Origin: Magnetococcales bacterium DC0425bin3
GTDB lineage: Bacteria > Pseudomonadota > Magnetococcia > Magnetococcales > DC0425bin3
Length of the DNA: 64,000 bases
Assembly (NCBI GenBank): GCA_002753665.1
Contig: PEAP01000004.1
Span: forward strand, 1,516 to 65,515
Direction: 5' to 3'
Each line of letters begins with the position of its first letter. Position 1 is the stretch's first letter. The position numbers and the translations under genes are program-made. A model generated the notes under the pieces. The model searched no databases, was not told the DNA's origin, and saw only the letters and a list, made by a program, of their open reading frames with translations. This document shows, piece by piece, positions 9,700-41,486 of this stretch.

Positions 9700-10287
9700 A
9701 TGAAGGTATTGCCGAAAACGAAACCGGGTCGGGGGATGCTGCTCATTCTCGGGCTGCTGGTGGCGGCCGGCTGTTCCCTGATCGGCGAGAACAGCAATTT
9801 CGTCCATCGGGAGCTGTCCACTGGCTTCGATCTGCATGTGGCGGTGTTGCCTTTCGAGAACCTGAGCAACAATCCCACGGCGGGGGTGGCGGTGTCCCAA
9901 CTGATGGCCACCGAACTCTATGCCCGCAAGGCATTCAGGATCATGGAAGAGAGCGAGATGCGCCGCCGTCTCACCATGCGCAAGGTGGATATGGACCGCC
10001 TGGCCGACGCCGCGGTGGCCCGCCAGGTGGCCATTCAACTGGGGGTGGACGCGGTGCTGATCGGCAGCGTGTCGGAATTCGCCTACCAGCATGGCCTGCG
10101 GGAGGAACCGGCGGTGGGGGTCAACGTACAGTTGATCCGCGCCCGGGATGGCTTGGTGATGTGGCGGGCCAGCCAGTCCCTGATGGGGTCCAACTTCTGG
10201 CGCCGTCAGAGCCTGATCCAGACCACCCAGCAGGCCGTGAACCGGCTGGTGGATGGACTGGTGGGTGCCACACTGCCGGAGGCCTGA
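9700..10287 (+). CDS. pelC: PelC-like outer-membrane lipoprotein
   Basis: 195 aa with lipobox LLVAAGCS. VAVLPFENLSNNPTAG motif typical of PelC/TolB-N-like lipoproteins. SD GAGGAA upstream. Confidence 0.75.
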   Translation: MKVLPKTKPGRGMLLILGLLVAAGCSLIGENSNFVHRELSTGFDLHVAVLPFENLSNNPTAGVAVSQLMATELYARKAFRIMEESEMRRRLTMRKVDMDRLADAAVARQVAIQLGVDAVLIGSVSEFAYQHGLREEPAVGVNVQLIRARDGLVMWRASQSLMGSNFWRRQSLIQTTQQAVNRLVDGLVGATLPEA

Positions 10288-10292
10288 CCGCC

Positions 10293-11705: not shown

Positions 11706-12852
11706 CGCTCCCTTGGCCGCAGCCATGCCGCCGCTTCCGGAAGAGATCGCGCCGCAAACCGGACGGCGTTATCGCAAACGCTGCATCCTGTTTTTCATGG
11801 TGACCGCCCTGGGCGCCCTGGTGGCCGAGGGCTGGGCCATGTGGCATCTGCTGGGTTCGGAGTATGGGGCGTCCTGGATCGGTATCGTCCCTCCGGCCGT
11901 GGCCCATCTGGTGGTGTTGAAGATCCTGGTGACCATTGCCGTCTATTTTCACAACCGGCCGGAACATTGTTCCCGGAACATGTTCATGCTGCTGGCCGTG
12001 GCCACAGCCTTCATGGGTGTGCTGGGTATCCTGGGAACCGTGATCGCCTATCTGCTGCATCTGGAATACAACCAGGAGTCGGTCTCTTTCGAGGAATGGT
12101 ACGCCTCCCTGTTTCCCGAAGAGGAGCGCGGGGCCTCCCGGGAGCTGATGGAGCGGTTGCAGGCAGCGGGGGAGGAGGGGGGCTCCCTGACCCCTTTCAC
12201 CGATGTGTTGACCTACGGCACCCAGGCCCAGAAGCAGGCCATGATCGCTTTGATCAGCCGGGATTTTCGCCCCCAGTTCGCCCCGGTGCTGAACCAGGCC
12301 CTCAACGATCCCGACAACGCCGTGCGGGTGCAGGCCGCCACCGCCGCCACCCATGTGGAAAACCGCTTCATGAAGAAGTCCATGGAGTTGGAAGAGACCG
12401 TGGCCCGCAACCCGAAGGATGACAAGCAGTTGCTTGCCCTGGCCCGCCACTGCGACGACTATGCCTTCTCCGGCCTGCTGGAGGCCGAACGGGCCCGGGA
12501 ATACGGCGACAAGGCCCTGGCGGCCTACCGGAAATACCTCACCCTGCGTCCCGACGATGTGGCGGTGCGGGTGGCGGTGGGACGCCACCTGGTGCGGAGC
12601 CACCGGCTGGAGGAGGCGGCGCGTTATCTGGAAGAGGCCCTCCGGGGGGAGAAACCTTCCCCCCAGCTGGCGTTGTGGTACATGGAGACCCTCTATCAAC
12701 TCCGGCGCTTCGAACCCCTGGAGGAGCTGGCACGCCGGTATGGGCAGGACTTTACCGCCGCGGCGGGGTTTCCCGTGCAGGTGGTCGAGGCGGTGGGGCT
12801 GTGGGCCGGCGCCACCAGGGCGGCAACCCCTCAGCCGGCGGGGTACCGATGA
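11698..12852 (+). CDS. pelE: PelE-like inner-membrane TPR protein
   Basis: 384 aa. GTG 11698 overlaps the pelD stop by 8 nt. Two or more N-terminal TM helices, then TPR-like helices. Stop TGA 12850-12852 lies inside repeat copy 1. Confidence 0.65.
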   Translation: MADAPLAAAMPPLPEEIAPQTGRRYRKRCILFFMVTALGALVAEGWAMWHLLGSEYGASWIGIVPPAVAHLVVLKILVTIAVYFHNRPEHCSRNMFMLLAVATAFMGVLGILGTVIAYLLHLEYNQESVSFEEWYASLFPEEERGASRELMERLQAAGEEGGSLTPFTDVLTYGTQAQKQAMIALISRDFRPQFAPVLNQALNDPDNAVRVQAATAATHVENRFMKKSMELEETVARNPKDDKQLLALARHCDDYAFSGLLEAERAREYGDKALAAYRKYLTLRPDDVAVRVAVGRHLVRSHRLEEAARYLEEALRGEKPSPQLALWYMETLYQLRRFEPLEELARRYGQDFTAAAGFPVQVVEAVGLWAGATRAATPQPAGYR

Positions 12853-18089: not shown

Positions 18090-18911
18090 ATGATTCAGAC
18101 CTCGCTCTTGGAACGCATCCCCTTCTTCCGGGATTTTTCCCAGGGAGATCTGGAAGAAATCGTCCTGCACAGCGATGCCCAGTTGCTGAAGATTCCACCC
18201 AACCAGACGATCCTCAACGAAGGGGATATGGGACAGACCTGCTACATCCTGCTCCGGGGCAAAGCGGTCATCTACAAACGACCATTCTCCAACCCCCTGT
18301 CCTGGCTCAAGCCCGGGCAGGTGTTCGGTGAGGTCTCCTTCCTCACGCCCCGGGTGCGGGTCACCAGCGTGGTGGCGGAGGAGGAATGCATCGTCCTCCA
18401 GTTCGACAAGGCCTTTCTCCAGGACTTGAGCCCCGACTGCCGGGACAAGTTCAAGGACCAGATGATCATCACCCTGGTGAAGAATCTCGACAGCCTGCGG
18501 GAGGTCATTGAGGAATACAAGGCCCCGGTGGTGATCGAGCATCGCAATCCCTTTTCCGACTACAAGGACGCCGAGGGCAAGGAGGTCAAAGAGGAACTGT
18601 GCTACGAGGATGACGAGGGGTTCAAGATCATCAACCTGGGCCGGCGCAAGGTGCGCCTGGAAAAGGACGGCAAGAGTACCGAGGTGGAGCTGGTCCCCCT
18701 GACCACCAATATGCCCGGCAAATTTCTCAACATCCTCAAGAGCCAGGGCAAGGATCCTGAGGACTACCTGTTCGGCAAGGATTTTCTCATTCCCAGACGG
18801 GCGGAAAGCGCCTGGAAGCGGATGCTGGTGGCGGAAGACAGCAAGAAATTGAAGATGGAGCGGGAGATGAAGAGCTACCTGGAAAAGGACGGTGTGCCTG
18901 GCGCCCTGTGA
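18090..18911 (+). CDS. Cyclic-nucleotide-binding domain protein
   Basis: 273 aa. IPFFRDFSQGDLEEIV...ILNEGDMGQTCYILLRGKAVIY...GQVFGEVSFL is a CAP/cNMP-type fold. The Lys/Glu-rich C-terminal half is of unknown function. Confidence 0.75.
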   Translation: MIQTSLLERIPFFRDFSQGDLEEIVLHSDAQLLKIPPNQTILNEGDMGQTCYILLRGKAVIYKRPFSNPLSWLKPGQVFGEVSFLTPRVRVTSVVAEEECIVLQFDKAFLQDLSPDCRDKFKDQMIITLVKNLDSLREVIEEYKAPVVIEHRNPFSDYKDAEGKEVKEELCYEDDEGFKIINLGRRKVRLEKDGKSTEVELVPLTTNMPGKFLNILKSQGKDPEDYLFGKDFLIPRRAESAWKRMLVAEDSKKLKMEREMKSYLEKDGVPGAL

Positions 18912-19040: not shown

Positions 19041-20513
19041 ATGCATGTGGTCATGGTGGCTTCCGAATGCGCTCCGGTGGCCAAGGTGGGCGGTCTGGGG
19101 GATGTGATTTACGGCTTGTCGCGGGAGATGGCCATCCGCGGCAACAGCGTGGAAGTGATCCTGCCCAAGTATGACTGCATGCGTTACGACCACATCTGGG
19201 GGCTCTCGGTCAGTTACGATGACCTCTGGGTTCCCTGGTATGGCGGATCCATCCACTGCACCGTGTGGTCTGGCTTCGTCCACGGCCAGCTCTGTTTTTT
19301 CATCGATCCCCACAGCAGTGACCAGTTCTTCAACCGTGGATCCTATTACGGCTTCTTCGACGAGGCCAAACGCTACGCCTTCTTCTCACGGGCGGCCCTG
19401 GAGTTCATGTACCGCTCGGGCAAGCGACCGGACATCATCCATACCCACGATTGGCAGACCGCCCTGATTCCGGTGATGCTGTGCGAACTCTACGCCGGCC
19501 TGGGCATGCAGAACTGCCGGGTGGTGCATACCATCCACAACTTCAAACACCAGGGGGTGGCCAGTGGGGAAATTCTTGCCGCCACCAATCTGCACCGGCC
19601 CGACTTCTATTTCGCCGAAGACCGCATGCGGGATCCTTTCAATCCCTTTGCGCTCAATTTTACCCATGGGGCGATGGTCTATTCCAACTTCGTCACCACC
19701 GTGTCGCCCAAACATGCCTGGGAGGCCCGTCATACCGATCAGGGCTATGGCCTGGGCCATGTGCTGCACCGGTATCAGGACAAGTTCGGCGGGATCCTCA
19801 ACGGGTTGGACTACCAGATGTGGAATCCCGAGCTGGATCCCCACATCGCCCATCATTTCACCGCCGGCGACCTGACCGGCAAGGCCGGCAACAAGAAGGC
19901 TCTGCGCCACCGGTTGATGTTGCAGGACAACGACAAGCCCATCATCAGCTATGTGGGTCGACTGGATACCCAGAAGGGGGTGCATTTGATCCGCCATGCC
20001 CTCTTCACCGCCATCTGGAACGGCGCCCAGTTCGCTCTCCTGGGGTCGAGCCCGGAATATGGCATCAACGACGATTTCTGGCACCTCAAGCATTTCCTCA
20101 ACGACAACCCGGATTGCCATCTGGAAATCGGCTTCAACGAGGAGCTGGCCCACCTGATCTATGCGGGATCGGACATGTTCGTGGTCCCCAGCCTGTTCGA
20201 ACCCTGCGGCCTGACCCAGATGATCTCCCTGCGCTACGGCACGGTGCCCATCGTCCGGGCGGTGGGAGGCCTGGTGGATACGGTATTCGACTGGGATTAT
20301 TCCCCGCTGCCCCGGGAGCAGCGCAACGGCTTCACCTTCGACCATCCCGACTTCGCCGGCATCGAGTCCGCCATGCGCCGGGCTTTGGGGCTGTGGGGGG
20401 GGCGTCCGGACCTGTGGCAGCAATTGCGGGTCACCGGCATGCAATACGACTATTCTTGGAATCAGCCGGGACAGCACTACCTGCAGATCTACGAGTTCGT
20501 TCGCCATAAATGA
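19041..20513 (+). CDS. glgA: Glycogen synthase
   Basis: 490 aa. ECAPVAKVGGLGDV signature plus C-terminal GT5 motifs (PSLFEPCGLTQM). Confidence 0.9.
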   Translation: MHVVMVASECAPVAKVGGLGDVIYGLSREMAIRGNSVEVILPKYDCMRYDHIWGLSVSYDDLWVPWYGGSIHCTVWSGFVHGQLCFFIDPHSSDQFFNRGSYYGFFDEAKRYAFFSRAALEFMYRSGKRPDIIHTHDWQTALIPVMLCELYAGLGMQNCRVVHTIHNFKHQGVASGEILAATNLHRPDFYFAEDRMRDPFNPFALNFTHGAMVYSNFVTTVSPKHAWEARHTDQGYGLGHVLHRYQDKFGGILNGLDYQMWNPELDPHIAHHFTAGDLTGKAGNKKALRHRLMLQDNDKPIISYVGRLDTQKGVHLIRHALFTAIWNGAQFALLGSSPEYGINDDFWHLKHFLNDNPDCHLEIGFNEELAHLIYAGSDMFVVPSLFEPCGLTQMISLRYGTVPIVRAVGGLVDTVFDWDYSPLPREQRNGFTFDHPDFAGIESAMRRALGLWGGRPDLWQQLRVTGMQYDYSWNQPGQHYLQIYEFVRHK

Positions 20514-22009
20514 CCGGGTCGGTGCCCGGGAGACAAGGGGACATCATGTCGGATTTTCCGGAATGCCACGGCCACCTGCCGAATCTGTCGGGCCAGGAGG
20601 AACGGCTGGGCCGGATTCTGGAAGAGCGCGCCGGGGAGGCAGTCTATGGCGGGCGCAGCGATGTGGACTTCGCCGCCATCAACAGCGCCTTTGCCATCGG
20701 TCTGCACATGCATCAGCCGCTGGTGCCCGCCGGCGGGGCGGATCTGGCCACTGCCGCCATCATCAGCAATCTCCAGCACATGCTGAACCATCCCCACCTG
20801 GGGGACAATCACAACGCCCGGGTGTTCCAGAATTGCTACCAGCGCATGGGGGAGATCATCCCGCGGTTGATCCGCGCGGGCCGCTCGCCCCGGGTGATGC
20901 TGGACTATTCGGGAACTCTCCTCCATGGCCTGTGGGCCATGGGGCTGCACGACGTGTTCGATGACCTGAAGCGCATCACTCTGGATGCGGAATTCAACTG
21001 GGCGGTGGAATGGCTGGGGACCCCCTGGGGACATCCCGTGGCGCCCTCCACCCCGGTGCAGGACTATCGACTGCATGTGCGGGCCTGGCAGCATCATTTC
21101 GCCGCCCTGTTCGGCGAGGAGGCCCTGGTGCGGGTGCGGGGTTTTTCACCGTCGGAGATGGCGCTGCCCAATCATCCGGATGTGGCCTATGCGTTCGTCA
21201 GGACCCTGCGGGATTGCGGGTATCGGTGGGTGCTGGTGCAGGAACACACCGTGGAACAGCCGGCCAATGGCTGGGGTCCCGAGCGGCCCCATCTGCCCCA
21301 CCGCCTGGTCTGCACCAGCAGCACCGGGGAGCAGGTGTCCATCATTGCCGTGATCAAGACTCAGGGCAGCGACTCCAAGCTGGTGGGGCAGATGCAGCCC
21401 TACTACGAGGCCCGCAACCATGGCCGCTGGACCCTGGGCAGCCACCGGGTGCCACCCCTGGTGACCCAGATCGCCGATGGGGAGAACGGCGGTGTGATGA
21501 TGAACGAATTTCCTCCCAAGTACATGGATGTCATGAAGGAATGCACCGGCACCCCCACCCGGGCCATGAACGTCACCGAATATCTGGAACTGCTTTTCGC
21601 CTCCGGGGTGACCGAAGCCGACCTGCCGGTGTTGCAACCGCTGCATCAGAAGGCGCTGTGGGACCGTTTTCGGGCCGGCGACGGGCCGGAGAAGCTGGAG
21701 CAGGCCATCCAGGACGCCAAGCAGGCCGACCATCGCTTCCACATGGACGGCGGCAGTTGGACCAACCACATCTCCTGGGTGGCCGGATACGACAACCTGC
21801 TGGACCCCATGCTCAAGACCAGCGCCCGGTTCAACGAAAAGGTCCTGGTACCCGGAATCGCCACCGACGAACAGCGCTACCGCAACGCCCTGTACCACCT
21901 GCTGTGCAGCCAGACCAGTTGCTACCGCTACTGGGGGCAGGGCCAGTGGACCGACTACGGTCGCGAGATCTGCCGGCGGACCGGGGAGATTCTGCAATAC
22001 GATTTTTGA
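20510..22009 (+). CDS. Glycoside hydrolase family 57-like alpha-glucan enzyme
   Basis: 499 aa. GLHMHQPLV near the N-terminus. ATGA overlap with glgA. An alternative SD-backed ATG is at 20546. Confidence 0.6.
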   Translation: MTGSVPGRQGDIMSDFPECHGHLPNLSGQEERLGRILEERAGEAVYGGRSDVDFAAINSAFAIGLHMHQPLVPAGGADLATAAIISNLQHMLNHPHLGDNHNARVFQNCYQRMGEIIPRLIRAGRSPRVMLDYSGTLLHGLWAMGLHDVFDDLKRITLDAEFNWAVEWLGTPWGHPVAPSTPVQDYRLHVRAWQHHFAALFGEEALVRVRGFSPSEMALPNHPDVAYAFVRTLRDCGYRWVLVQEHTVEQPANGWGPERPHLPHRLVCTSSTGEQVSIIAVIKTQGSDSKLVGQMQPYYEARNHGRWTLGSHRVPPLVTQIADGENGGVMMNEFPPKYMDVMKECTGTPTRAMNVTEYLELLFASGVTEADLPVLQPLHQKALWDRFRAGDGPEKLEQAIQDAKQADHRFHMDGGSWTNHISWVAGYDNLLDPMLKTSARFNEKVLVPGIATDEQRYRNALYHLLCSQTSCYRYWGQGQWTDYGREICRRTGEILQYDF

Positions 22010-26439: not shown

Positions 26440-27102
26440 TCAGACCGCCCGTGGCCGGTCCTGGAACAGCCCCGCCAGCCAGTCCATGCGGGTGAGGGGC
26501 GCGCGGTCGTGGTCTTCCTGCAGGGTGAGGATGGCCCGGGTGGCGCGCTCCAAATGGCGGCGCAGGAGGTCCTGCTCTTCCTTCAGGAGGCGGTGTTGAT
26601 CCTGGAGGGCATCCAGCCGCCGTTGCAGATGGGTCAAGTCCACCGCCGCAGGTGGCGGCGTGATTGGAGCGGCGCTGGGGGCGGAGACGGCGGCTGCCGG
26701 CCCCGGGGCACTGGCGAACAGCTGGGCCAGCACCGCGCCATCCAGCAGGCGCCGGGTGCCCTGGAGACGAAAGGGCAGTTCGCCCCGCTCCATTTTCGAA
26801 TACAGGGTGGACCGGGGGACATTGTACAGGCGACTGGCGGCGCTCACGGTCAGTTCCCCGGCCTCGGTCCGGCGCATGGGAGGGGGAGAAGAGCAGGTTG
26901 GGGAGGGGAGGGGCGGCAGCGGGGTGACCGTCGGGGCGTCCGCCCCGTTGGCGCCCGGGGCCGGGAAGACCCGGCGCACCTCGGCGGCTTCCAGCAGGCG
27001 TTGGGAGCCTTCCTGCAGATACGCCAATTCCCCGTTTTCCATGCGGCGCAGCAGCTCGCTCTTCGATAGTCGGAAGCGGCGGGCCGCTTCGTTGACGGAC
27101 AT
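26440..27102 (-). CDS. Tandem excisionase/MerR-type HTH protein with C-terminal coiled coil
   Basis: 220 aa from ATG 27102. Two HTH units (MSVNEAARRFRLSKSELLRRMENGELAY and LTVSAASRLYNVPRSTLYSKMERGELPF). Leucine-rich coiled-coil tail. Divergent from ParA-like gene 1. Confidence 0.6.
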   Translation of the reverse strand: MSVNEAARRFRLSKSELLRRMENGELAYLQEGSQRLLEAAEVRRVFPAPGANGADAPTVTPLPPLPSPTCSSPPPMRRTEAGELTVSAASRLYNVPRSTLYSKMERGELPFRLQGTRRLLDGAVLAQLFASAPGPAAAVSAPSAAPITPPPAAVDLTHLQRRLDALQDQHRLLKEEQDLLRRHLERATRAILTLQEDHDRAPLTRMDWLAGLFQDRPRAV

Positions 27103-27391
27103 TCCGATCACGTCATTCTCCCCATGCGGAACATATGGAGGCAGGACCGGGGCTGGTCGCCCTGCCAAGTGGATTGTTTCATCGGGGACTCGGTGATGCT
27201 GGCGCGGTGCTTGCCCCTGCCGCAGCCCGGTCGGTGGGCTATTGCCCACGGTCGTCCCGGGGGCGACTATGCAAATCCGGAGCCGATTGGCGATTCCCCG
27301 TTCTAAGCCGCCGGGGGGTTTGGTAGACTTTTCCGGTGCGGTAGAGGCGGGCGCCAGCCCAGCGATTTCCGACCGGTATCCCGGGTGCGAC

Positions 27392-28036
27392 ATGGCCAAA
27401 GTGATTGCAGTCGTTCAATTGAAGGGGGGCGCCGGACGCTCCACCGTTGCCACCAATCTGGCCGGGGAACTCAGCAAGCGCGGCTCCGTGATCCTGGTGG
27501 ACGCCGACCTGCCCCAGGGCACCGCCCAATCCTGGTTCCTGCTGCGTCAGGAGGCGGGGCGGGAGAATGGGCTCACCCTCAGCGAGGCCCATAACGCCGA
27601 GCAGCTCAGGGCCACCGTGACCGGGGCGCTGGGCCGGGTGGATTATGTGGTGATCGACGGTCCGCCCCGCATCGCCGGCCTCACCCGGGACGCCGTGGTG
27701 ATGGCCGACTTGTGCCTCATCCCCCTGGGCGCCAGCATCTCCGAAACCTGGGCCACCGATGAACTGGAAAAGACCCTCAAGGATGCCGGTCGGGAGAAGG
27801 CAATCGATGCCCGCATTCTCTGGACCCGGTTCCGGGGTTGGACCCGGGCGGCCCAGGACCTGAGCGCCGCCATGGCCAAGGATTTCGACCTGCTCCACAT
27901 CGGCACCCGCCTGGGCTACCGGGTGGCCTACGCCGATGCCCTGTCCCGGGGCCTGACGGTCTGCGAATGGCACGACAAGGCCGCCCGCGACGAGTTCACC
28001 CAGGTGGTGGACGAGGTGCTGGGGCTGCTGGGCTGA
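27392..28036 (+). CDS. Small ParA/MinD-family ATPase with atypical Walker A (KGGAGRST)
   Basis: 214 aa. MAKVIAVVQLKGGAGRSTVATNLA, ILVDADLPQG, YVVIDGPP. No ParB gene adjacent. Confidence 0.8.
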   Translation: MAKVIAVVQLKGGAGRSTVATNLAGELSKRGSVILVDADLPQGTAQSWFLLRQEAGRENGLTLSEAHNAEQLRATVTGALGRVDYVVIDGPPRIAGLTRDAVVMADLCLIPLGASISETWATDELEKTLKDAGREKAIDARILWTRFRGWTRAAQDLSAAMAKDFDLLHIGTRLGYRVAYADALSRGLTVCEWHDKAARDEFTQVVDEVLGLLG

Positions 28037-28126: not shown

Positions 28127-28960
28127 TCAACCCAGGGGAGTCCGGGCCAGCCGGCGCATCACCGGCAGGTGGCCTTTTTCCCGGGCCATGGTCATGGCAT
28201 CGCTGCCGTCATGATGGACCAGGGCGGCGTTGGCGCCATGGGAAAGCAGCAGTTCCACCATTTCCAGATTGCCCCGCTCGGCGGCCAGCATCAGGGCGGA
28301 GTAGCCGGTCCGATCAGCCTGGTCGACCCCGGCGCCTTCGTCCAGCAGGTTGGCCACCACCGGCGGCACCTGGGCGCGGACACCGGCCATCAGGGCGGTC
28401 TTGCTGTCCCGGTCACGGGCGTTGGGGTTGGCTCCGGCGGCCAGCAAGGCCTTGGTATGGTCTGCCAGGCCGTGCCGGGCGGCTTCCATGAGGGCGGTGC
28501 GGCCCTGACGGGTCGTGGCGTTGACATCCGCCCCGGCGTCGATCAGGCGGGCCATCACCTCCAGCTGATCCCACTGGGCGGCCAGGATCAGGGGCGTTTG
28601 TCCCCAGGCATTGCGTTGGTTGATATCGGCGCCGGCGGCGATCAAACGATTCACCAGAGTCGCATTGCCTTCCACCACGGCCCACATGAGGGGTGAAAAT
28701 CCCTCCGGCCCGATGACATTGAGGTTGCGCTGGGCGGCGATGAACCGCTCCACCGCGGGCAGATTGCCGTCCATGGCCGCCTGGGCCACCGGATCATTGG
28801 GCAGGGCTGTGGGGTTGACGCCATCCCCCTCCTGCAGGAACAACAGGGGCACGAAGGCGACCAGGCAGGCGGTGGTCAGGACCAGGGCAAGGGTGGCTTC
28901 CAGGATTTCGGTGGCGATGTGGAAGGGTCTGGGGTGATCGTGGGCCAGCATGTTGGGCAT
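28127..28960 (-). CDS. Membrane-anchored ankyrin-repeat protein (paralogue 1)
   Basis: 277 aa with one N-terminal TM (LALVLTTACLVAFVPLLFL). At least 6 ANK repeats (GFSPLMWAVVEGN..., GQTPLILAAQWD..., GRTALMEAARHG...). SD GGGAGG. Confidence 0.85.
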   Translation of the reverse strand: MPNMLAHDHPRPFHIATEILEATLALVLTTACLVAFVPLLFLQEGDGVNPTALPNDPVAQAAMDGNLPAVERFIAAQRNLNVIGPEGFSPLMWAVVEGNATLVNRLIAAGADINQRNAWGQTPLILAAQWDQLEVMARLIDAGADVNATTRQGRTALMEAARHGLADHTKALLAAGANPNARDRDSKTALMAGVRAQVPPVVANLLDEGAGVDQADRTGYSALMLAAERGNLEMVELLLSHGANAALVHHDGSDAMTMAREKGHLPVMRRLARTPLG

Positions 28961-28983
28961 TGTTTTTCCTCCCGCTGTTTTGA

Positions 28984-28995
28984 TTGATTAATCAA
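28984..28995. promoter_or_regulatory. Perfect 12-bp palindrome TTGATTAATCAA in the ankyrin-1 leader/promoter
   Basis: Lies 24-35 nt upstream of the start codon. Embedded in TGATTGATTAATCAATGAATGAATCAA. Confidence 0.4.
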
Positions 28996-29424
28996 TGAAT
29001 GAATCAAATATTATCGAATGCTGATATCACTATTCGGCAAAGCCGCCGCCCGGATCAACCAAATCTTTGTAAAACTTTTGCAACGTCGTGAGGATCCGAC
29101 CGAATGCCGGGCGCCCCGACGATCCCTTGTACGGGGGCGTTGCACCGGGTGGGCGTTCCTTGATTGACATTAACTCAAGATTCGTACCAATTTCGACAAA
29201 TCGGACAAAATCGGAACAGGACGGCTGAAGGCCGGAAGCTCGTCAGGGAAAAGCGATTTCAATTCAATTTATTGACGACAACGCCCCGGCGCGGAACAGA
29301 ATCGGGCGAACCGGCTGTGGCCCAGCGGTTGCCGCGGACCGGCGGCAGAATGACGGTGGCGAATTATTGACGAGGGCGTCGGAATTCCGCCACCAGGCAG
29401 AATATGACAAAACATGACTGTTGC

Positions 29425-29454
29425 AAAAAAAAGCGCCCCCCAAGAGGGGGGCGC
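29425..29454 (-). terminator. Rho-independent terminator of glgB
   Basis: GCGCCCCCC-AAGA-GGGGGGCGC, followed on the minus strand by T8. Lies 40 nt after the glgB stop. Confidence 0.85.
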
Positions 29455-29494
29455 CCGGGATTTCGCCACGACCGACGGCCGGGTCGATCAGCGG

Positions 29495-31987
29495 TCACTT
29501 TTTCCGTTTTTTTTCTGGCTGGGGTTTGACTTCCATGGGGAAGTCCTCGCTCAGTCCGAAGCGATTCCGGTAGGCATCCACGTCCAGCTTGTGGGTGCGG
29601 GCCAGGTGGACCGGCAGGGACTTGAATTCCTTGCCGCACAGCAGGCAGACCACGCCATCCTTGCGCACCGCCTGGTCCAGGGGGACCGCGGGGGCCTGAT
29701 CACCGGCCGCCTCCGGGGAGGAATCGTTCTCGGCGGGGGGCGGGGTGAAGAAGCCATCCGGGATTTCCCGGGGTTCCAGCACCAGAGCCGCCAGGGGGGG
29801 CAGGGTGAGGCTGATGGAGTAGGGTCGCCCGTGGTGGGGGACCTCCTCGGCCGTCACCGACCCGCCATTGCCCATGTTGCTGCCTTGATACTGGGCGGAA
29901 TCGCTGTTGAAGAGTTCTTCGTAGGTGCCCGGCAGGGGGGCGCCGATGCGATAGCCGACCCGGGGGACCGGGGTGAAGTTGCACACGACCAGCAGCAACC
30001 CGGCATCCCGGCCCTTGCGCAACCAGGAGATCACCGACTGATCGTGATCGTGGCAGTCAATCCATTCGAAACCGCCCGGCTCGTGATCCAGTTGATGCAG
30101 GGCGGGGTGGTTCTTGTAGAGGTGGTTGAGATCCCGCATCGTCTTCCAGATGCCCTGGTGCAGGGGCACGTCGTTGAGCAGGTGCCAGTCCAGGCTCTGC
30201 TCGTGGTTCCACTCCCGGCCCTGGCCGAATTCCCCGCCCATGAACAGCAGCTTCTTGCCGGGGAAGGCATACATGAAGGTGAAGTAGGCGCGGAGATTGG
30301 CGAACTTCTGCCAGGCGTCGCCGGGCATCTGGTCCAGAAGGGAGCGTTTGCCGTGGACCACCTCGTCGTGGGACAGGGGCAGCAGGAAGTTCTCGTGGTA
30401 GGCGTAGAGCATCCCGAAGGTGAGCTTGTTGTGGTGGTAGCGGCGGTGGATGGGTTCCTTGCGCATGAACTCGAGGGTGTCATGCATCCAGCCCATGTTC
30501 CACTTGAAGCCGAAGCCCAGACCGCCCAGATCCACCGGGCGGGAGACCATGCCCCAGGAGGTGGACTCCTCGGCGATGGTGATGGCCCCGCCGCCCTGGG
30601 CATAGACCTCCTTGTTGAGGAGCCGCAGGAAATCGATGGCTTCCAGGTTCTCGTTGCCGCCGTAGCGGTTGGGGATCCACTGGCCTTCTTGGCGGCTGTA
30701 GTCGTTGTAGAGCATGGAGGCCACCGCGTCCACTCGCAGGCCGTCCAGATGGAATTCCTTGATCCAGTACAGGGCGTTGGCGATCAGGTAATTGCTGACC
30801 TCGGCCCGTCCGTAGTTGTAGATCAACGTGTTCCAGTCCGGGTGAAAGCCCTGGCGGAGGTCCTCATGTTCATAGAGTGCGGAGCCGTCGAAGCGTCCCA
30901 GGCCGTGGGGATCGGTGGGGAAATGCCCCGGCACCCAGTCCATGATGACGCCGATGCCCTCCTGATGGAAGCGGTCCACCAGATAGCGGAAATCATCCTG
31001 CAGCCCGAAACGATGGGTGGGGGCGAACATGCAGATGGGCTGATAGCCCCAGGACGGGTCGAAGGGATGCTCGGAAACCGGCAGCATCTCCACATGGGTG
31101 AAACCCAGGGCCTTCACATAGGGCACCAGCTGATCGGCCATTTCCCGGTAGGTGAGGTACCGGTTGCCATCCTCCGGCACCCGTCGCCAGGAGCCGAGAT
31201 GGCACTCGTAGATCGACATGGGGGCATGGTAGATGTCATGGGACCTGCGTCGGTCCATCCAGCCCTGATCGCCCCACTGATGGGTGACGGGGTGGGGCAC
31301 CACCGAGGCATTGCCCGGGGGGGCTTCGCACACTTGGCCATAGGGGTCCGATTTCAGGGGCAGGGTTTCGCCGCCGGGTCCCTTGATTTCATACTTGTAG
31401 AGGTCGCCCGGCTGCACCATGGGCAGGAACAATTCCCAGATGCCGCACTCGACCCGCAGCCGCATGGGATGGCGGCGACCGTCCCAACTGTTGAAAGGGC
31501 CCACTACGCTCACCCGGGAGGCGTTGGGTGCCCAGACGGCGAACAGGGTTCCCCTCACGCCGTCCAGGGTCTTGGGGTGGGACCCCAGGCGCTTGTAGAG
31601 TTCCCAGTGGCGGCCTTCCCGGAACAGGTAGGCGTCGATTTCGCCCAGGATGGACCAGAAGCGGTAAGGATCCTCCAAATCCACGGTGCCGGTATCGAAG
31701 CGCGCCCGGATCAGGTAGGGAAAATACTCTGTCTCATTCAGGGCCGAGGTGGCGAAGAAGCCCCAGTCGTGGACCAGATCCATGGGGGCGATCACCTGCC
31801 GATTGTCGCGGCGCAGCAGCTCCACTTGGCTGGCCCCCGGCAGAAAAGCCCGGACAGTCAAAAAACCGTCGCCGGTCTTGTGCATCCCCAGGAATCCAAA
31901 GGGATCCCGGCAATGGCCCGAGACCACCTGGTCGATCAGATGCTGAGGATGCAGGTTCGGATTGCTGCGGTCGTTTGGGGCGATCAT
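29495..31987 (-). CDS. glgB: 1,4-alpha-glucan branching enzyme fused to a C-terminal Ros/MucR-type C2H2 zinc finger
   Basis: 830 aa from ATG 31987. GH13 motifs [39 protein letters not shown]-terminal 57 aa [45 protein letters not shown] matches the Ros/MucR DNA-binding domain. Confidence 0.9.
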
Positions 31988-32257
31988 GTCAGGTGTTCTC
32001 CTCTTTAGAGTCTGTCGCGGAATATGGCTATGGCAATGGGGACCATTCGCCCGAACCTGTCCCCCCATCCGTAAGGGGTTCCCGCGCCGGCGTCATGATA
32101 CCGGAACTGTCACTGTTCCGCCTAGGCTTTATTTTCCAATTCACCAGACGTTGAGCAAATCTGGCACGGATTTCTCAACTCCTCCCCCATGGAGCCCAGG
32201 GATGACAGGAATCCCGACGATCGGGACTGTCAATGATACAGCAGGGGGAGTGGACCG

Positions 32258-35884: not shown

Positions 35885-36002
35885 GGGTCAGGTTCCGGCG
35901 CTGCGGATTGGGAATCCATTAAAAACATGTTGCAAAAAGCAACAAATGTCTCCGGCATCGCCCAGTGGCATCGATTGATGTCGTTCAGGGGGCAAAGACC
36001 TC

Positions 36003-37088
36003 CTAGTATCCAAACAGTTGGCCAACGTCATGGGTCTCCCTGATGATGATATCTCGAACTTCCTGGGACAGGTGGTGGCCGCTGACCGTGGATGGGGAGA
36101 TATCGTTCAACAGCCGGAGGGATCGCTCCGATAATGGCGGCAGTTGGGCAAATTGGAGCAGCTTTGCAAATTCCTGTTCGGGAGCGGAGCAGAACTCTTC
36201 GTATTTGATCAGATGAATACGATCAGCCAGGGGGTTGTATCGATCAATCAATGTCGCCACAAACCGATAGACCTCGACCCATTGCCGGGCATATCCCAAA
36301 TGGTCCTGGCCTTCCTGCCAGGCCTGGAGGATGGGTTGGCAAGCCTCGGGGGACAGGCAGATGGGCACCCGTTGTGGACCGAATTCGAAGTGGCCGGCCG
36401 ACCGGAGATAGGTTGCCACCCTGGGGTCGTTGCGGGCATAGGTAGAAAACAGTTGGTGCTGGCGTACCAGTGAGTCCACATGGCTCAGGGGGTGACGGAT
36501 GGGAATGATGAAACGGGCCAGAGGGAACTGCCGGGCAAGCCAGGGGATGCGGGTGAAATTGTAGTTGCCTTTGGAAAGATAACGTCCTCCCTGTGCCGGA
36601 CCCCGAACCAGAATGAGTTTGCGGATGTGGGCCCGGAAAAAGGCGGAAAAAGCGGATTCTTTCTGCTCCGTATCCAGCAGATGGGACTGTTTTGGGTGAT
36701 GGCAATGCGGGAAAAAGAGGTGCCAGAGAGGTTCTTCGAAGGCCTCGGGACTGTCGGTGGTGATGAAGATTCGATCCTTGTGGGGCCGTTCTGCGGGTGG
36801 GCTGGAGCGGGCGAACAGGTGGGTGAAACGGTTCCAGAACACCGGTATCGTCAAAAAGGGAAAATCCCGGTAGCGGTGGGTGACCACTGCACCGGTATCG
36901 GACAACAATTGCAGGAGGATCGTGGTTCCCGAGCGGGCCAATCCGGTCAGAAATATCGGCCGATCAATGGTCAAGGGTCGCAGTTCGTTTTCAAGCAGAC
37001 GTGTTTCGAGGTTGCCCAACCAGATCCAGAATTCTGGGCAGCAAGCGGCGGTGCGGGCCAGCATGTAATCGATTTGCCGAAGATTCAT
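36003..37088 (-). CDS. PAPS-dependent sulfotransferase family protein
   Basis: 361 aa from ATG 37088 (ATGA overlap with the upstream ORF). 5'-PSB-like FLTGLARSGTTILL and 3'-PB-like IPIRHPLSHVDS. Confidence 0.7.
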   Translation of the reverse strand: MNLRQIDYMLARTAACCPEFWIWLGNLETRLLENELRPLTIDRPIFLTGLARSGTTILLQLLSDTGAVVTHRYRDFPFLTIPVFWNRFTHLFARSSPPAERPHKDRIFITTDSPEAFEEPLWHLFFPHCHHPKQSHLLDTEQKESAFSAFFRAHIRKLILVRGPAQGGRYLSKGNYNFTRIPWLARQFPLARFIIPIRHPLSHVDSLVRQHQLFSTYARNDPRVATYLRSAGHFEFGPQRVPICLSPEACQPILQAWQEGQDHLGYARQWVEVYRFVATLIDRYNPLADRIHLIKYEEFCSAPEQEFAKLLQFAQLPPLSERSLRLLNDISPSTVSGHHLSQEVRDIIIRETHDVGQLFGY

Positions 37089-37789
37089 CGTTTGCAGGTG
37101 CGTTTGATGAGGGATCCAAGGGAGGACAGGGTGAGGAAGACAAAAAAGATCAACTCCAGGTTGCTCAGGTAAGGCCAGAGCGGATTTGTTCTGCCATCGG
37201 AAGGACGCACCACGACGCACCCTGGAGTGGATTCCGGAAACAGGTCCTTTGGATCGGGGGTGGCAAAGCCCAGCGACTGGAACAGCAGACGATGGACCAG
37301 ATGGGGGCAGAAAGCATATTTTTCCAAAGAATCCTTCAGTAGAAACGTTCCAGACGTTCCTGTCAATACCACAGGGTCGTTGTGGTGCTGTTTATGCAAC
37401 GGGACGGGGGAGGGAGAGTCATTCACCAACAGCAGGGACAAGCCTTGAGGATGGATATCCAGAAAGCCTGGGGATCCCAGGATCCAGATGTCGGCCCTGG
37501 GTATGACCAGGGACAGAAACAGCCAGAGGGGCAACAGGGCCAACACCATCCCAACCAGGTTGCGAAAGGAATAGATTGCCACCATCCGAACCAGTTGCAG
37601 ATAGTTCTGCAGGAATTGATCGCCGGTGACATCCTGTAAGAGTTTCCGGGACATCCCGACCAGCTGGGACCAGAATGGCCGCTTTGGATCCCCCATGATC
37701 AGACGCTGCAACAGCCGGAACAAGATCCCACCGGCCGCCAATCCTGCCAGCGCGACCAGTCCTTGGGCCAGTACGGTTTCATTGGTCAT
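37085..37789 (-). CDS. Hypothetical membrane protein
   Basis: 234 aa with 3-4 hydrophobic segments. No motif recognised. Confidence 0.5.
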   Translation of the reverse strand: MTNETVLAQGLVALAGLAAGGILFRLLQRLIMGDPKRPFWSQLVGMSRKLLQDVTGDQFLQNYLQLVRMVAIYSFRNLVGMVLALLPLWLFLSLVIPRADIWILGSPGFLDIHPQGLSLLLVNDSPSPVPLHKQHHNDPVVLTGTSGTFLLKDSLEKYAFCPHLVHRLLFQSLGFATPDPKDLFPESTPGCVVVRPSDGRTNPLWPYLSNLELIFFVFLTLSSLGSLIKRTCKR

Positions 37790-37858
37790 GGGGGGGAAGC
37801 CGTTGATGCCGGCGGAGCGGAATCCGTTGCTGAGTCATCGGACCCCCAATGGCAGACT

Positions 37859-38260
37859 TTATTCGGGATGAACTGGTTTCGGGGACTCAAGAGAGACATT
37901 CTGGGATGCCGAGGCGCTTTTTTTGTTTGCCAGGAATCGTTTCAACAGGCGTAACGGATAAAATAAAAGACCTGCCAGGCCCAACAGAATGACCAGGACC
38001 ACGGAGACCAAGCTTCCCATCATGCCCAATCCCGCCCCCGGTCCGATATAGGCGTGGGCATTCTCGGCCCAGAGACACAGGATCGCCAACAGACTTGGCT
38101 GAAGAGCCTGTCGCAGAATGCGGAAGATTCTGGGGTATAAGGATGCGTCTCTGGAATCAATCGATGCCGCGCCATCCGACGAGCAGAGCGGCCATGGATG
38201 GCCATTCTGCGACCGACTCTGAAGTGCCAGCGGTAACGTATTCCTCGGAAGGGTGATCAT
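37859..38260 (-). CDS. Hypothetical small membrane protein (AYIGPGAG motif)
   Basis: 133 aa. Signal-like LLAILCLWAENAHA, then YIGPGAGLGMMGSLVSVVLVILLGLAGLL. Start uncertain. Confidence 0.4.
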   Translation of the reverse strand: MITLPRNTLPLALQSRSQNGHPWPLCSSDGAASIDSRDASLYPRIFRILRQALQPSLLAILCLWAENAHAYIGPGAGLGMMGSLVSVVLVILLGLAGLLFYPLRLLKRFLANKKSASASQNVSLESPKPVHPE

Positions 38261-38269
38261 GGGGAACCG

Positions 38270-39619
38270 TTACCTGACATTGAAAGGAAAGACCACGCCA
38301 AAGACATACTTGGCAGTGTAGATGGGGTGGAGCAATGGTCCCTCCTTGTTTTTGTCCCCATGGATGAACTCCCAGAGGATGGTCCCGGAGGACAGGTCGA
38401 TTTCCTGGACCAGTCCCTGATGGGTCAAAGCCAGCAGCAGCCGGTGGCCATTGGGGTGGATGTCCAGATGTCCTGCCGTTTCGGTGCCTGGTTTGTTGAT
38501 CCCTTTGCCGCCAGGCAATGGGTAGAGGAGCTGGGACAGGCCGCTGGCCAATTCGATGGCCAAGATTTGTGTGTCCCCATTAAGGTGTACGCCCCCCCGG
38601 TTGTCAAGAACCAGAATGGCAGAGCCATTGAGCCGCGGGCTGTGCTGGCGGATGGTGGTTCCGGTCGAGATCCATTTGAAACGGCGGGTTCCACCATCCA
38701 GAATTCCGACCATGTTGAGTTGCCGCAAGGAGACCAGCATGTCTCCCTCTTTCAGGAGGGGATGATCCGCAGCGAGCGCGGCATCAACGAGGCGAACATC
38801 ATTCAGGTGGGTGGGATCGCATTGATGGAATCCAGAGTCTTCATCATAGCCCCGGAACAGACCTGGCAGACCGGAATCGATCAAGGCCTTGAGAATGGAA
38901 ATCCGCTCCATGACAGTGCCATTGGGATCCAGAATGGCAATCTCGTCCGAGTTGAAAAGTCCCTGGTGACAAATCAAGTCGAAGCGGGTCGTACCGATGC
39001 GCCAGGGGGATTGCTCCAGACTGAGCGAAGGGGAATAAATACGGCCATCGACAGCCACCGAGAACCAGTGGTGATAGAAGCCTTCTTTTTTCCATATTAA
39101 ATTGGAATCCTTATCGAACCTGGCCATTCCAATGGCATATGGAAAAGTGTTCTCACCCTGATAGCTGACCAGCAAGTCACCGTTCTCGAACAGGTGCAGA
39201 CCTACGGGATAGATGGTCGAAAGCAGGGGAGCCTGGACCCGTTCCAGGTCGGCCCAGAGATCGGGATCAAAGGTCCAGACATGTTTGACAGAGCCTTTTC
39301 TGTCCATGAGCCAAGCAAGACAGCCCTGTTTGGGACAGTGGGATGTCAGTTGACCAGGACCGCCACTCAGCAGGAGCAGTTCGTCTCCTGCCAGAGGAGA
39401 TGAAGTATGGACAGTGGGTTCATCGATGCCCACAGGACGATTCTGATCGTTGACAAAGAATTTAGACAGATAAACCTGCGAAAGAGCATGTAGACTGGTC
39501 CACGCTTCCAAAAGAACCCCGTAAGGGAATATTTTGAGTTTCGAAACGGCGACTCCATAGGAGAATCCAAGCAGAACAAGCGAGAACAAAAAAAATAGCC
39601 GAGATATTCGATTGAGCAT
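38270..39619 (-). CDS. Arylsulfotransferase (ASST)-like beta-propeller protein with N-terminal anchor
   Basis: 449 aa. N-terminal TM LFFLFSLVLLGFSYGV. CDPTHLNDV resembles the ASST D..H.N motif. Repetitive beta-strand pattern. Confidence 0.5.
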   Translation of the reverse strand: MLNRISRLFFLFSLVLLGFSYGVAVSKLKIFPYGVLLEAWTSLHALSQVYLSKFFVNDQNRPVGIDEPTVHTSSPLAGDELLLLSGGPGQLTSHCPKQGCLAWLMDRKGSVKHVWTFDPDLWADLERVQAPLLSTIYPVGLHLFENGDLLVSYQGENTFPYAIGMARFDKDSNLIWKKEGFYHHWFSVAVDGRIYSPSLSLEQSPWRIGTTRFDLICHQGLFNSDEIAILDPNGTVMERISILKALIDSGLPGLFRGYDEDSGFHQCDPTHLNDVRLVDAALAADHPLLKEGDMLVSLRQLNMVGILDGGTRRFKWISTGTTIRQHSPRLNGSAILVLDNRGGVHLNGDTQILAIELASGLSQLLYPLPGGKGINKPGTETAGHLDIHPNGHRLLLALTHQGLVQEIDLSSGTILWEFIHGDKNKEGPLLHPIYTAKYVFGVVFPFNVR

Positions 39620-39983
39620 TTCTTGATTTCCGGAAAAGCCTGTTTCAACAAAATCCGATTTTCAATTGTGGATTGAAGGAAAACGGCAACAGCGAAGCGA
39701 GTGGGAGAACTGTTTATTTTTTAGTTCGAGTAGATTTATGTCTATTTGAGGTAAAGATTATACTGAATGTTCAGAAAAAATCCAGGAAAAAACGTTGGCC
39801 AATAATCAGGTTCCCGCTTCCGGGATCGAACCAGACATTCTTCGAATATAAACATAAAAATCAATCTGTTGAACGTATCCGACCTTGAGAGGAGGTCAGG
39901 CCCATCCTGGGGGCGCCGTGATCCATGGACTGCTGCTGCAGGAAAGATCAAAATGCCGTAAACATCAGCAGAGTGAGATCCAA

Positions 39984-41486
39984 GTGTATTGCCACCGAAT
40001 CATCCTGGTCAACCCCCCTCCGGATTACGATCCCCACCTGTTCACCCGATTCCGGCCCGGCCAGGGCACCCAGTGGCCCATCGGACCGTTGCTGTTGGGC
40101 ACCTGCCTGAAGCGAGCCGGTTTCGAAGTGCGTATCATCGATGGCCAGGTGGTCGATTGCGCCGCCGAACTGCAGCGGGAGTTGGCCCTGGACCGGCTGC
40201 TGTGGGTGGGATTCTCCGTCATGAGTTCCCAGTTCCAGCAGGCCCGGGACCTCTCGCGGCTGGTCCGTCGGCTGGCACCGGGACTGCCCGTGGTCTGGGG
40301 GGGGTTCCATCCTACCCTGTTTCCGGAGTCCTGCCTGGAGAACGATTTCATCGATCATGTCGTCCGCGGGGAGGCGGATCGGGCCATCGTGCAATTGGGA
40401 CGTGCCCTGCAGGATGGCAGTCCACTGGAGCAGGTAGGCAACCTGGCCTTCCGCCATCGGGAGGGGGTCATGCTGAATCCGTTGCTGCCACTGTCGGACA
40501 TGGCCGACATGCCGCGCCCCGACGAAACCCTCCTGGACGACTACCGGGTGTATTTTTCCCGGCAGGACGTGCTGGGCCGACCGGCCCGGGGGACGATTCT
40601 GCTGACCGGCATGGGCTGCAACCTCAAATGCTCCTTCTGCCGCAATGCCATCCTCAGGGAAAAACATCGGCGCCTGGAGGCCGAGGCCATCTACAGCGAG
40701 ATGGTCCGATTGCACGCGGCCCATGGTGTGGATGAATTCGGCCTGGTGGATGAAAACTTCTTTGCCGACCGGCCCCGATTGTGGCGCTTTCTGGAGCTGC
40801 TGGAGCAGAGCCCCGTGCGGTTTCGCTGGTCCACCAACCTGCGGGCCAATTATGTACGGGACGGCTATCTGGACCGGGATTTCCTGGCGCGGATCGCTGC
40901 CAGCGGCGGCTACTATTTTTCCGTAGGTGCCGAAAGCGGGGACCCGGCCATCCTGAAGAAGATCCGCAAGGGCATCCGGGTGGAACACCTGCGCAACCTG
41001 GCCCGGTGGACCCGGGGTCTGGACATCATCATCACCTACAGCTTCATGGCGGCCATTCCCGGCGAGTCCTGCGACATGACGTTGCGCACCTTCCGGCTGA
41101 TCCGAGAGTTGCAGGCGATCGACCCGCAGTCCAGGATCATTGGTCCCCAGGTCTTTCGTCCCTACCCGGGCAGTCCCCTGTTCCAGGAGGCGGTAACCAT
41201 GGGATTGCAGGTACCCCGGGATTGGAACAACGCCGAGGATTTCTTTCGCACCCTGTTCCAGTTCCGCCAGATCTCCCCCCAGGCCATCCCCTGGCATCCG
41301 GAACCGGAACGGTTCAAGTATATGCTGCTCTCGTTCTCCATTCTGCTCTTCAGGATGAACACCCCGCTGCGCCGTCTGCTGCTGGGTCCCCTGCACCTGC
41401 TTTCGACCCTGCGCCTCAACAGCGGCTTCTACCGCTGGTTCTTCGAAAAGTGGCTGCTGGACGCCATCAATGCGCGCCTGACATGA
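39984..41486 (+). CDS. B12-binding-domain radical SAM enzyme
   Basis: N-terminal IILVNPPP...GPLLLGTCLKRAGFEV is a B12-binding fold. CNLKCSFCRN is a CxxxCxxC cluster. Start uncertain: GTG 39984 preferred, alternatives GTG 39918 and TTG 39885. Confidence 0.8.
   Translation: MYCHRIILVNPPPDYDPHLFTRFRPGQGTQWPIGPLLLGTCLKRAGFEVRIIDGQVVDCAAELQRELALDRLLWVGFSVMSSQFQQARDLSRLVRRLAPGLPVVWGGFHPTLFPESCLENDFIDHVVRGEADRAIVQLGRALQDGSPLEQVGNLAFRHREGVMLNPLLPLSDMADMPRPDETLLDDYRVYFSRQDVLGRPARGTILLTGMGCNLKCSFCRNAILREKHRRLEAEAIYSEMVRLHAAHGVDEFGLVDENFFADRPRLWRFLELLEQSPVRFRWSTNLRANYVRDGYLDRDFLARIAASGGYYFSVGAESGDPAILKKIRKGIRVEHLRNLARWTRGLDIIITYSFMAAIPGESCDMTLRTFRLIRELQAIDPQSRIIGPQVFRPYPGSPLFQEAVTMGLQVPRDWNNAEDFFRTLFQFRQISPQAIPWHPEPERFKYMLLSFSILLFRMNTPLRRLLLGPLHLLSTLRLNSGFYRWFFEKWLLDAINARLT

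Follow-up and report, generated by a model that had tools for sequence, protein, structure and literature searches.

A 64,000-nucleotide stretch of the uncultured Magnetococcales bacterium DC0425bin3 (GenBank assembly GCA_002753665.1, contig PEAP01000004.1; hereafter, the window) carries on its minus strand a gene for the glycogen branching enzyme GlgB that continues, in frame, into a Ros/MucR-type zinc finger. Here, we describe this gene, glgB-ZnF (29495..31987, minus strand; 830 amino acids [aa] plus the stop codon at 29495-29497), together with a second gene of the same layout found in the same metagenome-assembled genome (MAG), and weigh what such a protein may do. Zinc-ligand and Pfam positions refer to the 857-aa open reading frame (ORF) that encloses the gene, and GH13 motif and model-confidence positions refer to the 830-aa product.

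The first 739 aa are a complete and, it appears, catalytically competent GH13 branching enzyme with a glucan-binding CBM48 domain, and by sequence this part is a member of GlgB/GH13_9. It scored 1015.4 bits against the NCBIfam equivalog NF003811 (cut-off, 741) and 954 bits against TIGR01515 (cut-off, 464). The NF003811 match (aa 145 to 765 of the ORF) defines the GlgB core at 29774..31636, with GlgB_N upstream of it (31664-31939), CBM48 at 31337-31588 and Alpha-amylase_C at 29771-30064 (Pfam; all minus strand). Searched with Pfam, the full ORF matched GlgB_N, CBM_48, Alpha-amylase, Alpha-amylase_C and ROS_MUCR, in that order. The four conserved GH13 regions are intact (DWVPGH at 350, GLRVDAV at 416, AEEST at 472 and SHDEVVH at 539), and the core of an AlphaFold2 (AF2) model built from a 61-sequence alignment had a predicted local distance difference test (pLDDT) score of about 90, mostly 85 to 97.

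The last 91 aa consist of a 26-aa linker, a 55-aa finger and a 10-aa basic tail with KKRKK. The linker (29693..29770, minus strand) is Pro-rich and acidic (6 acidic residues, 1 basic) and predicted to be disordered, with pLDDT values below 50 at aa 750 to 768 of the full-length model and of 53 to 61 in a model of the tail only. The Ros/MucR-type Cys2His2 finger (PAVPLDQ...DFPMEV; 29528..29692, minus strand) was delimited with Pfam PF05443 and the structure 2JSP, and the C-terminal basic tail (29498..29527, minus strand) was read from the sequence. ROS_MUCR (PF05443) matched aa 782 to 854 of the ORF at 61.5 bits (E = 1.1e-16; gathering score, 25.4) and the tail alone at 67.4 bits. The match is limited to profile positions 41 to 113 of 123, with positions 1 to 40 unmatched, so that only the DNA-binding half is present. 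The zinc ligands (C808-x2-C811-x9-H821-x4-H826) align with those of Ros87, the DNA-binding domain of Agrobacterium tumefaciens Ros (PDB 2JSP), which matched the tail with an E value of 2.5e-10; Ros87 residues 6 to 67 align with the tail gap-free, all four ligands included. A plasmid search with the tail returned 262 places at <60% identity, and every annotated place among the matches listed was a “MucR family transcriptional regulator.” The tail belongs to the Ros/MucR DNA-binding domain family; the whole protein is no MucR-type silencer, since it lacks the N-terminal self-association domain that defines that class. A preliminary description of this DNA, made from its letters, had claimed a complete GlgB, an in-frame Pro/Ala/Glu-type linker, a Ros/MucR finger with this ligand spacing and a basic tail, and the loss of the N-terminal oligomerization half; the tail reads exactly as quoted there, and the profile scores, domain order, GH13 motifs and Ros87 alignment bear out each of these points.

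The finger was modeled at pLDDT 84 to 93 (about aa 771 to 820 of the full-length model), with a less ordered chain end. Its predicted helices (791-799 and 803-810) follow short strands, consistent with a Ros87-type beta-beta-beta-alpha-alpha fold of ~58 residues, and a Foldseek search with the 91-aa tail model returned 2jsp as the sole significant PDB neighbor (E = 3.6e-4; TM score, 0.55 to 0.57). The AF2 output reports no interdomain contacts, and the low-confidence linker parts the modeled finger from the core; the modeled chain resembles an enzyme tied by a floppy linker to an independent zinc finger, with KKRKK at the C terminus. Finger and tail together have a net charge of +5 (14 K/R versus 9 D/E). 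The basic residues of helix 2 are retained (YRNRF, versus YREKW in Ros87), and an Arg two residues before the last His is kept in five aligned subfamily members (HLxR[ST]H). Because of this conserved Arg and the K/R clusters that end both fusion proteins (KKRKK here, GRKRSKK in the second), some nucleic-acid affinity of the finger is plausible.

The mechanical ORF (29495..32068, minus strand; 857 aa) runs without an internal stop, and the ATG at 31987, 27 codons inside it, is the likely start, giving 830 aa. We prefer this start because three lines agree on it: a strong Shine-Dalgarno sequence read from the DNA (AAAGAGGAGAA; 31996..32006, minus strand) lies 10 nt before the ATG, the N termini of homologues align there (MTTRNEETNANLHPSHLIDQVV in the alignment), and the deposited protein record (P0151; contig JADFWZ010000003.1, assembly GCA_015233965.1) begins at the same codon. 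The position of the Shine-Dalgarno sequence and the homologue alignment tell against the 857-aa start; the in-frame continuity given in the preliminary description stands and its longer start does not. Some 40 nt past the stop codon lies an intrinsic terminator (GGGCGCCCCCC-TCTT-GGGGGGCGC, then T8; 29431..29456, minus strand) with an 11-bp stem, 9 GC pairs and a T-run; it had been correctly noticed as strong, at coordinates a few bases off (29425-29454).

The gene is a genuine in-frame fusion. GC content at third codon positions (GC3) changes little along the gene (core, 0.85; linker, 0.81; finger, 0.82), and this continuity indicates that the frame is coding throughout and that the tail is compositionally native. 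The junction lies deep within the 113-kb contig JADFWZ010000003.1. The tail lacks both an in-frame ATG and a ribosome-binding site from which a finger gene could be translated by itself, and a GGAGG in the linker precedes only an out-of-frame GTG, so that a separately translated finger was rejected. A recent foreign insertion was rejected on the tail GC3 (0.82, versus 0.85 in the core). Of the 80 closest GlgB loci from GTDB representatives (one genome per species), 0/80 had a MucR finger, whether as part of glgB or less than 6 kb away, which leaves a read-through fusion of neighboring genes without support. At the loci of three related glgB genes (P0152, P0394 and P0154), no MucR finger lies near glgB, and none shares synteny with the window. 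The earlier claim that no start or stop separates GlgB from the finger gains strong, if indirect, support from the steady GC3 and with the recurrence of the architecture in a diverged GlgB on another contig.

That second GlgB-linker-MucR finger gene (P0156; MBF0624518.1; 845 aa) occupies positions 10001-12538 of locus L081 on contig JADFWZ010000018.1 of the same assembly (GCA_015233965.1). Its product is 59% identical to that of glgB-ZnF, also carries the four GH13 motifs, and continues into a linker, a ROS_MUCR match (52.7 bits) and an RKRSKK end; it was deposited as “1,4-alpha-glucan branching protein GlgB” only. GC content is 0.643 in L081 and 0.642 in the window, and the tetranucleotide correlation between them is 0.973 (0.987 between the window halves). 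At ~45% identity, each finger has nearer relatives than the other one; the linkers, too, are unrelated (26 aa and acidic here, ~52 aa of PEVVE/PAP-type repeats in P0156). No further finger copy was found in the window or L081, and the GlgA and GH57 proteins of the window lack one. P0156 is flanked by a dCMP-deaminase-like gene on one side and VTT-domain genes on the other, with a ter (tellurite-resistance-like) cluster nearby, and is not part of the glgB-glgA-GH57 operon that its subclade heads in other Magnetococcales.

In a neighbor-joining tree (200 bootstraps), both fusions fall inside the Magnetococcales GlgB clade with 100% support, in different subclades: P0151 (this gene) clusters with the 743-aa type (P0152 cluster; bootstrap, 80), and P0156 clusters with the 770- to 791-aa type (P0155/P0394 cluster; bootstrap, 96). 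The remaining members of both subclades end without a finger. Given these finger-free subclade mates, the unrelated linkers and the ~45% identity of the fingers, two separate gains are likely and more parsimonious than one ancestral fusion; the latter would need at least three losses and is less likely, though the shortness of the domain and the use of neighbor joining only leave it some probability. The recurrence suggests that the combination itself is under selection. Unrelated extensions occur elsewhere in the family: the type-B GlgBs of the Magnetococcales P0155/P0394 cluster (L092-L094) end in an acidic, His-rich tail of ~45 aa, and a GlgB from a JGI metagenome (P0269) ends in a P/A/E-rich tail of ~90 aa, so that the GlgB C terminus seems to be a permissive site for appendages.

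The architecture is rare in the sets searched. PF05443 occurred in 2/120 best GlgB matches from a set of 5.8 billion proteins, and these two were P0151 and P0156; the best GlgB among GTDB representatives (Magnetococcales DCbin2) is 66% identical. A scan of JGI metagenomes with the finger gave six loci, none with a GlgB sequence matched upstream. Among the 150 nearest finger-containing cluster representatives from a set of 1.8 billion proteins, partner domains were helix-turn-helix (HTH) domains, sigma-70 region 4, zinc fingers, Mrr_N and FxsA, with no metabolic enzyme. Literature searches on MucR with branching enzymes or with Magnetococcales found nothing relevant. Two further searches have no bearing on rarity: a word-indexed search with a 121-aa tail missed the window's own protein, and a profile of the GlgB C terminus plus tails gave fragments and missed both fusions. 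The preliminary description had known of no GH13 branching enzyme fused to a nucleoid-associated or transcription-factor domain, and across the non-exhaustive sets searched this rarity held, with two copies in one MAG. The protein is a new domain architecture made from known parts, seen in one uncultured genome and twice there.

The nearest relatives of the finger point to its probable source. Both P0017 (65% identity; taxon unrecorded) and a protein of a Magnetococcales MAG, P0022 (MBF0190594.1; 56% identity), start with a transmembrane-like helix, run on through a long P/A/V/E linker and close with one finger; they share the PAVP[VL]DQxV lead-in with the GlgB finger. This plan recurs in at least 8 of the 150 nearest finger representatives (P0022 [L091, 8001-8723], P0017, P0061, P0075, P0077, P0078, P0104, P0139 and P0143), with linkers of 40 to 250 aa that are P/A/V/E-rich in most; P0022 was deposited as a “MucR family transcriptional regulator.” Such proteins would be membrane-anchored DNA-binding modules. 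The likely donor is a linker-finger cassette that was already a C-terminal appendage on other anchors in relatives, and the reuse of this unit on membrane helices by the nearest finger relatives argues for a portable C-terminal tether. Of the 150, 67 carry at least two Ros/MucR fingers (the metagenomic proteins P0001, P0003, P0009, P0011, P0013 and P0020 among them), with two to six in tandem per chain and some fused to SWIM, sigma-70 region 4 or HTH domains; these are prokaryotic poly-zinc-finger proteins of the Ros-type fold.

Elsewhere in the window, glgA (19041..20513) and a GH57 gene (20546..22009) form a plus-strand pair (19041-22009) at a distance of 7.5 kb from glgB-ZnF. Other Magnetococcales have a type-B glgB before the pair, and here there is a gene with a cyclic nucleotide monophosphate-binding domain (18090..18911); because that gene replaces glgB in this position, the glgB-glgA-GH57 operon has been rearranged in this lineage. 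Two genes from glgB-ZnF, an orphan ParA/MipZ-like ATPase (27392..28036, plus strand) is divergent from an HTH_17/HTH_psq protein (26440..27111, minus strand); such a pair is missing from the second fusion locus. Cargo is positioned on nucleoids by ATPases of the ParA type. The region 36000-40000 has a low GC content (0.52 to 0.56, versus a window mean of 0.64), encodes a sulfotransferase, an arylsulfotransferase and unannotated proteins, and may be a horizontally acquired island.

Our first-ranked reading, to which we assign a probability of about 0.4, is that the GlgB-finger protein is a tether between glycogen, or the enzyme on it, and the nucleoid, comparable in logic to PhaM or AlgP; nucleoid tethering and autoregulation had both been raised as hypotheses in the preliminary description. 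In vitro, an isolated Ros/MucR C-terminal domain is enough for DNA binding, with helix 1 in the major groove and basic regions reaching the minor groove (PMC9410896). In full-length MucR, the N-terminal domains form a 12-mer ring from which fingers extend on flexible linkers, and this oligomerization, or multivalency, raises affinity for AT-rich DNA (PMC11662661). By this reading, the finger would bind DNA with low sequence specificity and an AT-rich preference, like isolated Ros/MucR C-terminal domains. The CBM48 and GH13 domains would place the protein on glycogen, and GlgB molecules on a glycogen particle would display many fingers together, making the particle a multivalent DNA binder that stands in for the 12-mer N-terminal ring of MucR. 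Enzyme and particles would thereby be held on the nucleoid, and the tethered particles could stay small and dispersed and be inherited equally, without the polar coalescence seen in Escherichia coli, where untethered glycogen phase-separates at the old pole, displaces the nucleoid and skews division (PMC11042326). There is precedent in PhaM, PhaF, PhaH and AlgP, which hold and space polyhydroxybutyrate (PHB) or polyphosphate granules on the nucleoid with an N-terminal granule-binding part and a C-terminal nonspecific DNA-binding part (PMC13052382, PMC3556143). The fuller proposal, that both GlgBs independently gained a linker-finger cassette which pins glycogen particles to the nucleoid, is held more tentatively.

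Several observations weigh against a tether. DNA binding by Ros87 needs the helix-2 basic region and two C-terminal basic regions (PMC9410896, PMC7710501), of which the first, RSRLAK-type, is absent here and a single terminal KKRKK cluster remains; the Lys-Arg that precedes the first His ligand in Ros is replaced by Pro-Val. Because of these changes, DNA affinity may be weak and should not be assumed equal to that of Ros. The genome is 64% GC, whereas MucR domains prefer AT-rich DNA. The fusion occurs in one MAG only, and closely related Magnetococcales do without it. The host is known only as an uncultured MAG, and the presence of both copies in one cell rests on binning and composition.

The main rival, which we consider unlikely, is a trigger enzyme or autoregulator like PutA, the enzyme that couples proline status to transcription. 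The finger would sit at specific operators (its own promoter, glg genes or neighboring genes), glucan binding would sequester it or alter its availability, and glycogen status would thus be passed to transcription. Pathway-regulating enzymes with fused DNA-binding domains are a known class, and most domains that co-occur with the finger in its 150 nearest relatives bind DNA or are zinc fingers (HTH, sigma-70 region 4 and Mrr_N). Ros/MucR proteins are moreover transcription factors (PMC9779718). Of all 40-mers in the 64-kb window, the one richest in AT (80%; 28979-29018) lies just downstream of glgB-ZnF, before the next gene, and contains a 20-bp near-perfect palindrome (TTGATTGATT|AATCAATGAA; 28980-28999), unique within the window (0 expected by chance). 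It lies 20 to 40 nt upstream of the ATG of a membrane-anchored ankyrin-repeat gene (28127..28960, minus strand) directly downstream of glgB-ZnF, and is a candidate operator. The near-palindrome is, however, absent at the second locus; the upstream regions of both fusion genes yielded neither an AT-rich nor a palindromic element (the most AT-rich 40 bp before glgB-ZnF reach only 62% AT), and a search for an operator common to both loci found none. Two different fingers on two paralogues fit a single operator code poorly, and the protein lacks the oligomerization domain that MucR requires for silencing (PMC9410896, PMC11662661).

A neutral or young accident, in which recombination joined a linker-finger cassette to the 3' terminus of glgB and the result was tolerated with no role, is improbable. 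Confinement to one MAG and the unrelated extensions taken by the GlgB C terminus in other lineages (the 45-aa tails of the P0155 type and the P/A-rich tail of P0269) are what it would lead one to expect, but both paralogues are affected, with different cassettes; both ligands and fold are preserved, amelioration of the composition is complete, and the ORF ends neatly with its own terminator.

It is similarly improbable that the finger serves something other than DNA, whether by binding another polyanion or partner (RNA, polyphosphate or protein) or by modulating the enzyme. Such a use would suit the reduction of the C-terminal basic regions relative to Ros (PMC9410896) and has a parallel in the divergent, truncated MucR homologues of group C, which have substituted DNA-contact residues and extra domains (PMC7710501); MucR has also been characterized in alpha- and deltaproteobacterial lineages, among which Magnetococcales do not figure. 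The zinc ligands, hydrophobic core and helix-2 basic residues are nevertheless conserved, as is the Arg of HLxR[ST]H across the subfamily, and the K/R clusters at both protein ends, the net charge of +5 and, in the AF2 model, a low-confidence linker with no reported interdomain contacts also argue for DNA.

Last, an assembly or sequencing artifact (a lost stop, a frameshift or a mucR-like gene wrongly joined to glgB in a chimera) might be feared of a short-read MAG whose protein is a one-member 90% cluster, but it is very unlikely because two diverged GlgBs of that MAG, 59% identical and on different contigs, carry the same architecture, and it also sits badly with the junction deep inside its contig, the unbroken GC3 periodicity, the lack of an in-frame ATG or Shine-Dalgarno sequence from which a separate finger could be translated, and the absence of an adjoining mucR at the 80 nearest GlgB loci and at the P0152, P0154 and P0394 loci.

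Nucleoid-based positioning is known for PHB, polyphosphate and carboxysomes, and a 2025 review of organelle positioning is silent on glycogen. If the nucleoid tether is real, it would have no described precedent, either as a positioning or inheritance system for bacterial glycogen or as a granule tether inside the polymer's own biosynthetic enzyme, and the glycogen particle would take the place of MucR's oligomeric core as the multivalent scaffold. The GlgB-finger protein is a concrete, clonable candidate for a link between glycogen and the chromosome, apparently acquired twice in one genome and experimentally tractable by heterologous expression. It would also extend the Ros/MucR finger beyond its textbook role in silencers to that of a portable C-terminal tether, and the tail could be a small module for attaching cargo to the nucleoid. 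Were the trigger-enzyme alternative true, the protein would be a polymer-sensing trigger enzyme.

Compared with known systems, the enzyme part of the glgB-ZnF product has the domain order and all four GH13 regions of E. coli-type GlgB (GH13_9) and is 70% identical to ordinary Magnetococcales GlgB, which lacks the 91-aa extension; the closest relatives end 5 to 8 residues past the PPLxxLVL motif. With Ros/MucR regulators (A. tumefaciens Ros; MucR of Brucella and Sinorhizobium), the finger shares PF05443, the Cys2His2 spacing, the helix-2 basic residues and a basic C terminus. It is 40% identical to Ros87 in the structural alignment, and its predicted fold matches 2JSP only. The differences are that Ros/MucR proteins have an N-terminal oligomerization domain, which the GlgB-finger protein lacks, that the C-terminal tail is 14 residues shorter here, with one basic cluster instead of two, that the Lys-Arg of the Ros recognition helix is Pro-Val here, with an Arg before the last His of the GlgB finger, and that Ros/MucR is a 15-kDa silencer, whereas here the finger sits on an 80-kDa enzyme. 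The helix-linker-finger proteins, which have the closest fingers, likewise lack the MucR N-terminal domain; their anchor is a transmembrane helix, and here the anchor is GlgB.

PutA, BirA, NadR and RbkR combine, like the GlgB-finger protein, a metabolic enzyme and a DNA-binding domain in a single polypeptide; these enzymes recognize defined operators within their own regulons and bind a small molecule as ligand, whereas the substrate of GlgB is a polymer particle and no operator was identified upstream of the two fusion genes. PhaM (Cupriavidus necator), PhaF (Pseudomonas putida), PhaH (Caulobacter crescentus) and AlgP (Pseudomonas aeruginosa) have the same layout of an N-terminal polymer-binding part and a C-terminal DNA-binding part, and their proposed outcome of dispersed, inherited granules is one that we infer for the GlgB-finger protein. 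They are not homologous to it, are not enzymes, and use histone-H1-like K/A/P repeats or a helix-hairpin-helix domain. The GlgB-finger protein is homologous neither to tethers of the PhaM/AlgP type nor to trigger enzymes and may work like either; here the putative tether is built into the biosynthetic enzyme.

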